Shown here piece after piece: positions 8,074 through 12,316 of a stretch of 64,000 nucleotides of DNA. The first letter of the stretch is position 1, and each line of letters opens with the position of its first letter. This stretch comes from Chloroflexota bacterium (GTDB lineage Bacteria > Chloroflexota > Anaerolineae > Aggregatilineales > J027). The stretch is taken from the NCBI GenBank assembly GCA_016234595.1, contig JACRBG010000011.1, positions 37,227-101,226 of the forward strand. Reading direction: 5' to 3'. Below the pieces are notes generated by a model. It was not told the origin of the DNA, did not search any database, and saw only the letters and a program-made list of their open reading frames with translations. A program made the translations under genes and the position numbers.

Positions 8074-9222
8074 TTAGGCAACGGCGACCCGCTGCAAATT
8101 TTTGACGGCGATGGCAAGGGTCCGGATGGTTTCTTCAATATCGCGCTGAGTGGTGTGTGTGCCGACCGTCAAACGCAAACTGGCGGAGGCTAATTCGGGA
8201 GAATAACCCAGTGCCAATAGAACACTGGATGGGGCCTGACTGCCTGCTTTGCACGCCGATGCACCACTGGCTGCGATGCCCTTTTCATCGAGATAACTAA
8301 TCAAGAACGAACCATGAATTTCTTCAATCACGAAACTGGCATGGGAGGGCAAGCGATCATGGGGATGCCCGGTCAGAACCGCCCCCGGAATGGTATTGAG
8401 GACACCTTTAATTAGAGCATCACGCAAGGTTTGGAAATGGGCATTGCGGGTTTCCAATTCTTGATAGGCCAGTTCTAGTGCTTTTGCAAAACCAACAATA
8501 AGCGGGGTTGCGTGAGTGCCAGCGCGTAGACCGCGTTCGTGTCCGCCGCCTGTTTGGGCAGGGGCAATTTCGATGCCATCGCGGATATAGAGTGCGCCAA
8601 TGCCCTTTGGTCCATAGAATTTGTGGGCGGAGAGGCTCATTAAATCCACCCCCAGTTTTTGGACATCTAAAGAAAGCTGCCCAGCAGCTTGCACGGCATC
8701 AGTATGAAAAATGACACCGCGTTCGTGGGCAAGGTCGGCTAGTTGCGGGATGGGTTGAATCGTGCCGATTTCATTGTTGGCATACATCACACTCAACAAA
8801 GTGGTGTCGAGGCGTAAGGCATTGGAGACTTCATGGAGGGAAACTTTGCCGGTACTATCAATGGGGAGGATGCTGCATTCAAACCCCTGTGTATCGGCTA
8901 ATTGGGTAATGGTTTTGCCGACCGCACCATGTTCAATCGCGGTAGTTACGAGATGTTTGCCGCGTTTGCGCTGTGTCCACGCTACGCCACGTACCGCCAA
9001 ATTATCACTTTCCGAGCCACCACTGGTAAAAATGATTTCGTGGGGTTGGCAATTGAGCACCCCGGCGATGGTTTCACGCGCTTGTTCAATGGCGGATTGG
9101 GCTTGATGACCGATGCGGTGAGCCGAAGACGCATTGCCAAAAACAGTCGTGAAATAGGGCAGCATTGTTTCGACAACGCGCGGGTCGGTGGGGGTAGTTG
9201 CGGAATGATCGAGGTATATCAT
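8074..9222 (-). CDS. iscS: Cysteine desulfurase (IscS/NifS family)
   Basis: YLDHSATT, FGNASS, HTDAVQ, SAHKFYGPKG (PLP Lys), SGASAC catalytic Cys loop. Confidence 0.92.
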   Translation of the reverse strand: MIYLDHSATTPTDPRVVETMLPYFTTVFGNASSAHRIGHQAQSAIEQARETIAGVLNCQPHEIIFTSGGSESDNLAVRGVAWTQRKRGKHLVTTAIEHGAVGKTITQLADTQGFECSILPIDSTGKVSLHEVSNALRLDTTLLSVMYANNEIGTIQPIPQLADLAHERGVIFHTDAVQAAGQLSLDVQKLGVDLMSLSAHKFYGPKGIGALYIRDGIEIAPAQTGGGHERGLRAGTHATPLIVGFAKALELAYQELETRNAHFQTLRDALIKGVLNTIPGAVLTGHPHDRLPSHASFVIEEIHGSFLISYLDEKGIAASGASACKAGSQAPSSVLLALGYSPELASASLRLTVGTHTTQRDIEETIRTLAIAVKNLQRVAVA

Positions 9223-9283: not shown

Positions 9284-9307
9284 AGAACAATCCACCATTG
9301 AGTTGTT

Positions 9308-9411
9308 GTTGCCACGCCAAATCGTGACCACATCTCCACAGGTGGTGGAAAGGCACCTTGGGCCGTTTAGACCGAGGTTGCCGGACTCCCTATCGGAGCC
9401 ACTCTTGATGC
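9308..9411 (-). ncRNA. SAM riboswitch, SAM-I/IV variant-like aptamer
   Basis: Minus strand GCAUCAAGAG-UGGCUCC/GGAGUC-CGGCAACC...AAGGUGCC-UCCAC/GUGGA-GAUGU, then P5 GUCACG/CGUGGC; SAM core conserved, P2 short with no kink-turn. Confidence 0.85.
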
Positions 9412-9547
9412 TTCACGATAAAATTAGCAGACCGATTGCGTTTTGTCAAAAAACTCCTTTGGGTCATTCGCACAATTACCTTACCCCCAACGTCCTCTCC
9501 AACGTGGCGAAAGGCGATAAATCAGCACGTATGACTTGAATGGCGTG

Positions 9548-10219
9548 TTAGATATGGTAGTCCATGACAGCCATTTCATGAGTGAGCAGCATGTCTAGGG
9601 ATGCTTGAGACTCGAGCTGTTCCAAGCGGGCTATGATCATTTCTATTCTTTCGGAAATCACGTCGGGCAAATTGCCATGTTGAAAATCTAAAGGTTCGGG
9701 CAGGATAGTGGATTCCATACGCACGATTGGTTTGCCGGGGATGCCAACCACCACTGAATGGGCTGGGGTATCTTTGATGACGACTGAATTAGCGCCGACC
9801 CGTGTGCCTTCGCCAATCGTAATCGCCCCTAGGATTTTGGCCCCAGCCCCAACGACCACGCGCGATTCTAAGGTAGGATGGCGTTTACCATGCGTCAGGC
9901 TGACCCCACCCAACGTAACCCCGTGATAGAGGGTGACATCCGCACCGATTTCAGCCGTTTCCCCAATCACCACCCCCATGCCATGATCAATGAACAGGCG
10001 CGGCCCGATTTTGGCGGCAGGGTGGATTTCGATGCCCGTTATAAAACGACTCATCGCAGCGATGGCTTCGGCCAAAAATCGCCGTCTTCTAAGCCATAGC
10101 CAATGGGATAAACGATGGGCCCAAACCGCATGGATGCCGGGATAAAACAACACGATTTGCAGCCAATGACGGGCGGCAGGGTCACGTTCTAGTACCGAGC
10201 GGATGTCTTCACGAAACAA
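9548..10219 (-). CDS. cysE: Serine O-acetyltransferase
   Basis: [36 protein letters not shown]; TTG start right after the cysK stop. Confidence 0.95.
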
Positions 10220-10222
10220 GAG

Positions 10223-11155
10223 CTAGTCCTCCAGATGGGCATACAACGCGGTTGATAGATAACGTTCGCCGAAGGAGGGGATGATGACGACCAGCAATTT
10301 ACCAGCATTTTCGGGGCGGGCAGCAACTTGTAACGCGGCCCAGACGGCTGCACCAGAAGATATGCCCACCAGCAGCCCTTCTTCGGTTGCCAGACGACGG
10401 GCGAGGGTGAAAGCATCATCCCCGGCGACAGTTACGATTTCATCATAAATATGGGTGTTCAAAATCCCCGGCACAAAACCCGCCCCAATGCCTTGAATGG
10501 GGTGTGGCCCTTTTTGTCCACCGGATAGGACGGGTGAGGCGGCTGGTTCGACGGCAATCAACTGGATGGAAGGTTTGCGGGCTTTGAGGACTTCACCTAC
10601 ACCCGTAATGGTTCCACCAGTGCCAATGCCGGAGACTAGAAAGTCAATTTGCCCGTCGGTATCGCGCCAGATTTCTTCGGCAGTGGTGGCCCGATGAATG
10701 GCGGGGTTGGCGGGGTTTTCGAACTGCTGGGGAATCCAGACATTGGGGTCGGCAGCGGCGAGTTCGTTGGCTTTGGCAATCGCGCCCGCCATGCCATTGG
10801 TTCCCGGCGTCAGGATGAGTTCAGCCCCATAGGCCCGTAGTAATTTGCGACGTTCCTTGCTCATGGTATCAGGCATGGTCAAAATGAGCCGATAGCCGCG
10901 TTGGGCACAGACCATTGCCAGCGCGATGCCCGTGTTGCCGCTGGTGGGTTCGACGATGATGGTATCGGGGTTGATTTTGCCTTCGCGTTCACCTGCCTCA
11001 ATCATAGCAACGCCGATGCGATCTTTGACGCTGTGGGCTGGATTAAAAAACTCCAATTTCGCTACCACCTGCGCGGATAGGCCGGATGTTACTTTGTTCA
11101 ACTTGACGAGGGGGGTATTGCCAATCAGTTCTGTGACATTATTTGCGATTTTCAT
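10223..11155 (-). CDS. cysK: Cysteine synthase A
   Basis: [36 protein letters not shown]. Confidence 0.97.
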
Positions 11156-11174
11156 GTGATCTCCCGAATGATGG

Positions 11175-11210
11175 AAAATAAAAACGAGCCACCCATATTT
11201 GAGTGGCTCG
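11175..11210 (-). terminator. Attenuator terminator upstream of cysK
   Basis: Minus strand CGAGCCAC-UCAAAUAUGG-GUGGCUCG followed by UUUUUAUUUU. Confidence 0.85.
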
Positions 11211-11242
11211 CTGTTTACCGATGGTTATCCAATCAGCAGTAT

Positions 11243-11323
11243 TCATCCCACCCAATGGGTGCGTCTGGTGTCACTTTCACAAGAACACATACAGAATAGT
11301 TGTTGATGAAACATGCTGCTCAT
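11243..11323 (-). CDS. Cys-rich leader peptide of the cysK-cysE operon (26 aa; 23 aa if started at ATG 11314)
   Basis: Own translation MSSMFHQQLFCMCSCESDTRRTHWVG*; three Cys codons in five positions; stop about 30 nt before the terminator. Confidence 0.75.
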   Translation of the reverse strand: MSSMFHQQLFCMCSCESDTRRTHWVG

Positions 11324-11434
11324 TGATTGATTTGATTGAAATTACTCAGGCAAGTATAGCTGAGAGATGCTAGGTCGCCAATTAGGATAATCATCCAAAT
11401 ATAGGGTTGTGGAAAAAAACGAGCCACCTGCGCT

Positions 11435-12316
11435 TTACACCACGCCTCGATCACGAGTTTGGCTCATGAGATGGATATAACCATCTTCCAAACTTGGTTC
11501 AGTGGGTATGGCATTTGGAAAAGCCGCCGCATCGCCAATAACACGATATTGGGTTCCTTGGGCTAATTGCAGCATGGAGACCACATTCAAACCATGATTG
11601 GGTCGCTGCCCGTCTGTTACAATATTCCAGACCTGCCCGCGCGTTTTTTGAATCAACTCGGTAGGCGCTCCACGAAACAGCACGGCTCCGTTATACATGA
11701 TGGCGAGATCATGGCAGCTTTGGCTGATGTCTTCAATGATATGGGTGGACAAAATCACGGTGGCGTTTTCGGCTAGTTCAGAAAATAAGTTGCGCAGTCG
11801 TACCCGTTCTTCGGGGTCAAGTCCGGCTGTTGGTTCGTCCACAATAATGAGTTGGGGGTTGCCAATAAGCGCTTGGGCGATGCCGATACGCCGTTTCATA
11901 CCCCCCGAATAGGTCTTGAGTCGCCGTTCAGCCACCTCGGTGAGATGAACTTTTTCCAGAACGGCTTGGACTTGGTGTTGGCGTTGCTGCCGATGGGTCA
12001 CACCTTTAAGAATGGCGACATAGTCTAAAAACTCGGCTCCAGTCAGATGAGGATAGAGGCCCAATTCTTGGGGGAGATAGCCTAACAGAGCTTTGGCGGC
12101 CTGTTTGCCTTTAAGGGTGTGAATATCGTACCCATTGACCTCGACTCGACCGGCTGTCCAATGCAGTAACCCAGCGATAATGCGCATTAGGGTGGTTTTG
12201 CCTGCGCCATTTGGGCCAACCAAGCCAAACATGCCCGTTCCGATTTCAAGGGAAACATCGTGTAAGGCTGTAATGTTGCCTTTATAAACTTTGGTGAGGT
12301 GTTCAATTTTGATCAT
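11435..12316 (-). CDS. ABC transporter ATP-binding protein (DrrA/CcmA-like exporter)
   Basis: GPNGAGKTT, YSGGMKRR, IVDEPT. Confidence 0.95.
   Translation of the reverse strand: MIKIEHLTKVYKGNITALHDVSLEIGTGMFGLVGPNGAGKTTLMRIIAGLLHWTAGRVEVNGYDIHTLKGKQAAKALLGYLPQELGLYPHLTGAEFLDYVAILKGVTHRQQRQHQVQAVLEKVHLTEVAERRLKTYSGGMKRRIGIAQALIGNPQLIIVDEPTAGLDPEERVRLRNLFSELAENATVILSTHIIEDISQSCHDLAIMYNGAVLFRGAPTELIQKTRGQVWNIVTDGQRPNHGLNVVSMLQLAQGTQYRVIGDAAAFPNAIPTEPSLEDGYIHLMSQTRDRGVV

Follow-up and report, generated by a model that had tools for sequence, protein, structure and literature searches.

The minus strand of the DNA analysed here, a stretch of 64,000 nucleotides from a Chloroflexota bacterium of the class Anaerolineae (hereafter the window), raises the question of why a short reading frame with three cysteine (Cys) codons, followed by a strong hairpin, is placed immediately before cysK-cysE. 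A preliminary description of the same DNA had proposed a classical attenuator, in which a ribosome stalled at the Cys codons allows read-through while a ribosome at the leader stop codon covers the antiterminator. This model is supported by our data, as sequence comparisons back each of its elements (i.e., the Cys codons, the terminator, the antiterminator and the geometry), and we consider it very probable that the element is a ribosome-mediated transcription attenuator which reads the supply of charged tRNA-Cys. Translation of the leader, the choice of fold by the position of the ribosome and the role of cysteine as the signal are our inferences; the transcription start site and termination at the U tract are likewise predicted.

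Leader frame, terminator and downstream genes

The leader frame (Table 1) had been described correctly with respect to its three Cys codons, its coordinates and its translation, and its codons for the pathway's own amino acid are clustered, with three Cys codons within five codons. The first ATG of the frame is not conserved and only the second is kept in four genus relatives, so that the translated leader may comprise 23 amino acids; judging from these sequences, the second ATG is probably the start codon. As no Shine-Dalgarno sequence precedes either leader ATG in the window's genus, translation of the leader is deduced from its relatives and from the conserved frame. A promoter-like site was found upstream by consensus scan, and its arrangement is kept in the four genus relatives L002 to L005 (TTGGCG or TTGGTG, a 17-nt spacer and TATACA); the transcription start predicted from it gives an A/C-rich 5' UTR of approx. 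22 to 31 nt. The 5' neighbour, a gene for an ABC-transporter ATPase, ends at position 11435, and the leader thus has its own intergenic region. Overall, the 195-nt leader folds with z = -3.6 and is more stable than all of 200 shuffled sequences.

Two structures around the leader were recorded as side observations. In the lowest-energy fold of the full-length RNA, the leader start region (CAAU.GAGCAGC...UUCAUC, 11300-11325, minus strand) pairs with the surroundings of the stop codon (GAUGAA..CUGCU.AUUG, 11228-11248, minus strand) and encloses the whole leader frame, and a C-to-U change in L002 retains one of these pairs as G-U; going by this modelled fold, the pairing might limit re-initiation on the leader. 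At the end of the upstream ABC-ATPase gene lies a branched hairpin (11405-11470, minus strand), the 3' arm and U tract of which (GGUGGCUCGUUUUUUU) are a near-repeat of the attenuator 3' arm (GGGUGGCUCGUUUUUAUUUU). If transcription of the ABC operon read through, the 3' arm of this hairpin could pair with the attenuator 5' arm.

The strong terminator that had been reported 3' of the leader was confirmed. Its stem consists of 13 pairs, 7 of them G-C, with a 4-nt loop (-21.0 kcal/mol), and is followed by a U tract of the form U5AU4; the stem is conserved in an RNAalifold consensus of 8 relatives, and every leader of the window's type has a terminator 3' of it. The leader stop codon and the terminator are separated by a 31-nt spacer able to fold as a small hairpin, for which no supporting covariation was found at positions 11218 to 11236. 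Protein family searches confirmed the preliminary assignment of the downstream genes as cysK and cysE (Table 1), with cysE starting 4 nt past cysK, and the cysK Shine-Dalgarno sequence lies outside the terminator. Further along the same strand, a SAM-I/IV riboswitch (9295-9416; RF01725, 45.5 bits against a gathering score of 41.1) sits between cysE and a gene for a NifS/IscS-like cysteine desulfurase (9222..8074). A single row of genes would therefore be headed by a cysteine attenuator and have a SAM riboswitch in front of the third gene.

Table 1. Positions of the leader, its predicted regulatory segments and the adjoining genes in the window, and of two further Cys leaders on other contigs of the same genome
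Feature	Position	Strand	Remarks
Promoter-like site, sigma-70-like	11353..11381	-	-35 TTGGCG (11381..11376), 17-nt spacer, -10 TATACT (11358..11353); consensus scan
Leader ORF	11243..11323	-	26 codons and UGA; translation MSSMFHQQLFCMCSCESDTRRTHWVG, then stop
Second in-frame ATG	11314	-	23-aa peptide MFHQQLFCMCSCESDTRRTHWVG
Cys codons of leader	11293-11291, 11287-11285, 11281-11279	-	Codons 11, 13 and 15
Putative regulatory codon cluster UGU-AUG-UGU-UCU-UGU	11279..11293	-	Cys-Met-Cys-Ser-Cys; conserved C-x-C(-x-C)
Predicted antiterminator strand (X), GCACCCAUUGGGUGG	11248..11262	-	Ends 2 nt before stop codon
Spacer hairpin CUGAUUGG-AUAA-CCAUCGG	11218..11236	-	Predicted in folds; tip of antiterminator structure
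Predicted intrinsic terminator	11175..11212	-	13-bp stem 11212..11183, loop AAUA, then UUUUUAUUUU to 11175
Terminator segment predicted to be bound by X, CCACUCA-AAU-AUGGGUG	11190..11206	-	Top of 5' arm, loop and first 6 nt of 3' arm
Shine-Dalgarno sequence GGGAGA	11165..11160	-	Before cysK
cysK, O-acetylserine sulfhydrylase	11155..10223	-	TIGR01139, 482 bits against cut-off 351
cysE, serine O-acetyltransferase	10219..9548	-	TIGR01172, 246 bits against cut-off 211
Second Cys leader, MNTMRQNCMCCMCEKRGR, then stop	Contig C34, approx. 73340-73720	+	Before cysK paralog (44% identical)
Third Cys leader, MVNLSVATTAQMMPCMCCTCSIFALSGV, then stop	Contig C25, upstream of gene C25:49706-50551	-	Before tandem-rhodanese sulfurtransferase

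Pairing between leader and terminator

The antiterminator had been proposed to consist of UUGGGUGG (11255..11248), just before the leader stop codon, paired with CCACUCAA (11206..11199) in the terminator 5' arm. These two segments are indeed complementary, with one G-U pair, but their 8 bp make up only half of a duplex of approx. 14 bp, which is formed by the segment X with the top of the terminator and has a free energy of -20.7 kcal/mol (z = -4.1; equalled by 1 of 300 shuffles). As the sole antiterminator, the 8-bp pairing was rejected, because it loses the fold when the RNA is truncated just after the terminator 5' arm; the antiterminator is the lowest-energy fold only once the loop and the first 3 to 6 nt of the 3' arm are included. 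X starts approx. 19 nt after the last Cys codon and spans the positions from -17 to -3 nt relative to the stop codon, in agreement with the classical geometry that had been claimed (i.e., free when the ribosome is stalled, covered when it is at the stop codon). X can also fold on itself (CACCC-AUU-GGGUG, 5 bp, -6.9 kcal/mol).

Duplexes of the same kind were found in all 14 leaders of the window's type (the "long" type), with free energies from -16 to -32 kcal/mol and z from -1.6 to -4.7. In all of these leaders X ends within the range from -9 to +8 nt relative to the stop codon, and in those whose only Cys codons are the ones of the cluster, X starts 18 to 22 nt past the last of them. The duplex sequences themselves differ among the 14 leaders, e.g., CUCUUGUGGGGUG with CACUCCACAAGAG in L008, CGCGCCUGUG with CACAGGCGCG in L009, and GUAGUGG with CCACUAC plus UUCG with CGAA in L006. 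Terminator loops normally vary freely; those of the long-type leaders match their own leader. The pairing of a leader with its own terminator top averages -20.0 kcal/mol, as compared to -14.3 kcal/mol for mismatched pairs, and for the four most distinct lineages the own leader is the top-ranked partner. Moreover, 80% of the cells that represent pairs between X and the terminator are paired in an alignment of 8 sequences, as compared to approx. 40% when the partner is slid. Four of these pairs change on both sides in this alignment; column pair 48:112, a loop-to-loop position, is A-U, G-U or G-C within the genus alone, and the G-C of pair 51:106 becomes U-A in L006. The alignment-wide covariation score is modest (reached by 17 of 500 shuffles) because there are few independent sequences, the covariation within the genus representing 5 close sequences.

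These comparisons bear on the possibility that the leader and a constitutive terminator form a stand-alone small RNA or the gene of a small Cys-rich peptide, with cysK being transcribed from a promoter of its own or by unregulated leak-through. The strength of the terminator (-21 kcal/mol), which is stabler than the antiterminator, would fit such an arrangement, as would the fact that attenuator leaders can persist as short RNAs. However, a plain terminator needs no segment complementary to its loop, whereas here such a segment is present and co-varies with the loop. In addition, a consensus scan found no promoter in the 27 nt between the U tract and the cysK ATG, the peptide is unconserved outside the Cys cluster, and the identical arrangement precedes three sulfur-related operons (see below). 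We regard this possibility as exceedingly improbable.

To return to the attenuator reading, the effect of ribosome position was modelled by masking a ribosome footprint on each of the three Cys codons and folding the nascent RNA up to AUAUGGGUGG (...GGGUGG), which approximates the RNA that has emerged by the time the polymerase arrives at the U tract. With the ribosome on any of the Cys codons, the nascent RNA is most stable as the antiterminator (-30.1 kcal/mol). Placing the ribosome at the UGA codon hides X, and the terminator alone forms; the complete RNA favours the terminator (-39 kcal/mol). Folds of this kind probe the geometry of the switch and not its kinetics. The terminator exceeds the antiterminator in stability by approx. 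7 kcal/mol, which requires the switch to be kinetic, and as the folds change with ribosome placement, the choice between them would be set by the position of the ribosome, as in classical attenuation.

In the mechanism that we propose, transcription would start approx. 25 to 30 nt upstream of a leader frame of 23 to 26 codons, and the outcome would be set by where the first ribosome is located while RNA polymerase transcribes the terminator. When cysteine is plentiful, the ribosome would reach the UGA codon and hide X under its footprint (approx. -15 to +12 nt), so that the 13-bp terminator would form and the transcript would end at the U tract, before cysK. When cysteine is scarce, the ribosome would halt on the Cys-Met-Cys-Ser-Cys codons. 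Since 19 nt separate X from the last Cys codon, X would then be free and could pair with the terminator from the upper 5' arm across the loop to the sixth base of the 3' arm; nucleation of the terminator would be blocked, and the polymerase would continue into cysK-cysE.

This design is not strictly that of a trp-type attenuator (1:2 / 2:3 / 3:4 pairing), because X is capable of self-pairing and a ribosome stalled on the Cys codons leaves the 5' half of X uncovered. A search for a classical segment 1 right after the window's Cys codons did not find a convincing pairing partner. The window's type looks like a simplified, three-segment version of an attenuator, and a leader of this type that is not translated might read through.

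Cysteine leaders among Chloroflexota and within the genome

The distribution of the leader was assessed by a census made via cysK and its neighbours. Among 17 genomes of the same order, in which the cysK orthologs are at least 74% identical, 16 carry a short frame that contains a C-x-C or C-x-C-x-C cluster and has a hairpin with a U run on its 3' side, in line with the conservation of Cys codons and hairpins upstream of cysK that the preliminary model called for. A scan of species representatives included approx. 30 named cysK loci from metagenome-assembled genomes (MAGs) of Chloroflexota/Anaerolineae; most of these have a leader, which is canonical in at least 22. A leader with the translation MLTCMCLGRDL also precedes cysK in Levilinea saccharolytica KIBI-1, which is in culture. 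C-x-C leaders were absent from all of 20 cysK loci (58 to 75% identical) from other classes of Chloroflexota and from all of the approx. 40 betaproteobacterial and actinomycetotal cysK loci in the species-representative scan. The presence of the leader in Anaerolineae and its absence from the control lineages indicate a family specific to the class lineage of the window.

Metatranscriptome and metagenome contigs in Logan that cross these leaders are of low depth and carry no informative ends; one contig of 151 nt spans 11133-11281 of the window, and a few contigs of 150 to 220 nt cross the Levilinea leader.

Several individual loci deviate from the common arrangement. One genus member (G002) is missing the cysK ortholog. 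In a genome of the same family (G010, locus L011), a Cys leader is absent upstream of cysK; palindromes of the type CCCCCCGAATTCGGGGGG recur in this region and may represent an insertion by which the leader was replaced. A third leader variant precedes cysK in L033 and L034 (a Thermoflexales and a Ca. Roseilinea MAG), with peptides ending in QCLCS and TCLCS, respectively, and the sequence UGUCUCUGUAGUUAG; the stop codon of this variant is placed one codon past the last Cys codon.

The C-x-C motif is kept in approx. 75 related leaders, with variation at synonymous positions and in the middle codon. Among 50 related leaders, the first Cys codon is TGC in 39 and TGT in 11, the second is TGT in 49, and the codon between them takes 12 forms (ATG in 25, TTG in 11, as well as GCT, ATT, ACA, GCG and others). 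An in-frame ATG and an open frame are present in every related leader, and most leaders beyond the window's genus have GGAG 6 to 9 nt 5' of the ATG, including most leaders of the short class described below. The peptide is otherwise unconserved, except over the RNA pairing segments. Essentially invariant Cys codons, a varying middle codon and a conserved frame together represent the signature of regulatory codons in a translated leader.

These patterns can be set against an explanation in which the short frame is not translated, and UGY-NNN-UGU and the G-rich segments are an RNA motif that is read by a protein, a small molecule or a tRNA, in the manner of a riboswitch or a T-box, and that acts on the same terminator. 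The near-constant UGU of the second Cys codon points to some conservation at the nucleotide level and would agree with this explanation, as would the conserved RNA structure and the genus of the window being devoid of a Shine-Dalgarno sequence. On the other hand, most members of the family have a clear GGAG-ATG arrangement, and approx. 75 leaders keep the in-frame ATG, the open frame and a stop codon at X while the middle codon and the rest of the peptide vary. A search of Rfam with the region 10900-11700 did not yield a relevant family at E-values up to 10, the sole match being a chance snoRNA (E = 4.1), nor did searches with eight related loci. A T-box (RF00230), a known riboswitch and a known leader family were thus ruled out for this element, and we consider a recognition of untranslated RNA very unlikely. 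A translated leader is the reading that we retain in what follows.

The long type represented by the window is less common than a short type, in which the leaders end in CxCxRRG and follow the classical four-segment layout of trp. In the short type, a G-rich segment (GGCGGGG) directly after the Cys codons pairs with a CCGCC segment just past the stop codon, and this second segment is the best partner of the terminator 5' arm in 25 of 37 cases; in a MAFFT alignment of the 5' module of the short class, segment 2 is out of register. Many short-type members have two nested stems with a U run after each.

To find further leaders in the genome from which the window was taken (5.2 Mb in 59 contigs), short frames with Cys clusters were collected from the approx. 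397 kb outside long reading frames. Among the 22 frames with a CxCxC-like cluster, three combine an ATG, a terminator and a downstream gene; they precede cysK, a cysK paralog and a sulfurtransferase gene (Table 1). Most of the other frames from this loose scan were dismissed, as they had no supporting context. A 79-amino-acid Cys-rich peptide (GGTVDVSAVLSCALGGCPTIFRGTCGVFTVGCC) on contig C7 (reverse strand, approx. 151082-151322), 128 nt upstream of a long reading frame, was likewise dismissed as an attenuator leader; it looks like an unrelated lanthipeptide precursor.

The second leader, approx. 230 nt upstream of the cysK paralog, has a promoter-like sequence (TTGACA, 17 nt, TAAACT) and a GGAGA ribosome-binding site, and it is followed by a long structured region in which two stems are nested, both of them with a U run at the end. 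Leaders of the cysK paralog were found in 19 of 20 relatives, with peptides ending in, e.g., ACLCxKQGR or CLCLRRGR. The terminator of the third leader has the form AAAGCCGAC-CGCCUGA-GUCGGCUUUUUUU, and the top and loop of this terminator (GA-C-CGCCUGA) find their complement in a segment just before the leader stop codon (UCAGGCGUC), i.e., the pairing layout is the same as that in the window. All 6 genus members and 3 other genomes have the rhodanese leader; in three further genomes, from other genera, the rhodanese gene is located downstream of the cysK paralog, apparently in one operon.

The identity of the downstream genes and of the middle codon is also relevant to the question of whether the signal is broader than cysteine, with the ribosome position responding to Cys and Met jointly or to a general slowdown or coupling of translation. 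Met codons are frequent between the Cys codons (AUG in 25 of 50 leaders, with the window reading Cys-Met-Cys-Ser-Cys), so that the signal may not be cysteine alone. However, 12 different codons were seen at the middle position (for Leu, Ala, Ile, Thr, Ser, Cys and others), in contrast to the near-invariance of the Cys codons on either side, and all three operons in the genome consist of genes for cysteine or sulfur transfer, not for methionine. A broader signal of this kind appears unlikely, and we continue to regard the supply of charged tRNA-Cys as the signal.

Taken further, these data lead us to lean, if only slightly, towards the view that Anaerolineae run a class-wide cysteine "ribulon", in which at least three independently attenuated operons per genome (cysK-cysE, the second cysK and the rhodanese sulfurtransferase) would sense Cys-tRNA via C-x-C leader peptides instead of a protein regulator. 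Such a ribulon would employ two architectures, i.e., the classical four-segment one (in many cases with two nested terminators) and the three-segment one of the window, whose antiterminator strand would imitate the terminator top, bind both arms and the loop, and be hidden only by a terminating ribosome.

Relation to known attenuators

In the enterobacterial attenuators (trpL, hisL, pheL, leuL and thrL), a translated leader with codons for the end product precedes an intrinsic terminator that has an alternative pairing, and the position of the ribosome decides between the two. The element in the window is like the trpL/hisL type in having a short leader with codons of the pathway, a terminator before the first structural gene and an alternative pairing that excludes it, and the short leaders of other Anaerolineae reproduce the 1:2 / 2:3 / 3:4 layout of four segments. 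It differs from this type in that the amino acid is cysteine, the Cys codons alternate (C-x-C-x-C) instead of forming a run, and the stalled ribosome does not cover any clear segment 1. Moreover, its predicted antiterminator strand copies the terminator top, pairs with both arms and the loop, and would be masked only by a ribosome at the stop codon. The phylum also differs, and the absence of a match to an Rfam leader family indicates no sequence homology to the enterobacterial leaders.

Cysteine leaders are best described in mycobacteria, where they were first predicted by Seliverstov et al. (2005, PMC1262725) and where polycysteine leaderless small ORFs form a "Cys ribulon" for which the stalling of ribosomes at the Cys codons has been proposed, and experimentally tested, as the sensor (Canestrari et al., bioRxiv 10.1101/834739). 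These ORFs have consecutive Cys codons on leaderless mRNAs and affect translation, in that they open a structure which occludes the ribosome-binding site further downstream; a conserved intrinsic terminator was not found in them (bioRxiv 10.1101/834739; PMC1262725). The element in the window shares with this system the placement of Cys-rich upstream ORFs on operons of cysteine metabolism, at several independent loci per genome. It differs in its alternating Cys codons and its canonical terminator/antiterminator pair, and neither a leaderless mRNA nor sequestration of a ribosome-binding site was found in the window, as the promoter-like site predicts a 5' UTR and the terminator excludes the cysK Shine-Dalgarno sequence.

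The uORFC-8-2 motif upstream of cysS in Rhodobacterales (Alphaproteobacteria) is a predicted attenuator that combines two stems, the first of which encloses tandem Cys codons (positions 14 and 15), with a U run at its end (Brewer et al. 2021, PMC8632094). Conserved Cys codons in an upstream ORF and a predicted ribosome-mediated attenuator are common to this motif and the window; the gene (cysK, not cysS), the alternation of the Cys codons and the lineage differ, and the sequences are unrelated.

The preliminary description knew of no characterised case in Chloroflexota, which agrees with our literature and Rfam searches; literature linking Cys-codon leaders to Chloroflexota, including Anaerolineae, was not found. 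Regulation of sulfur assimilation in this phylum, which is abundant in sludge, sediments and groundwater, is essentially unstudied, and a conserved family of cysteine attenuators that acts on three operons in each genome would offer a starting point for its study. The leaders of Anaerolineae are currently unannotated and would serve as a target for a covariance model in genome annotation, and the element in the window is small enough for a heterologous reporter. Compared to the few other cysteine examples, i.e., the translational one in mycobacteria and the one predicted for cysS in Rhodobacterales, the element in the window would add a canonical, terminator-based case. The mechanism is ordinary, and the textbook picture of attenuation is left unchanged by it; the lineage, the leader family and the regulon of three operons are new.
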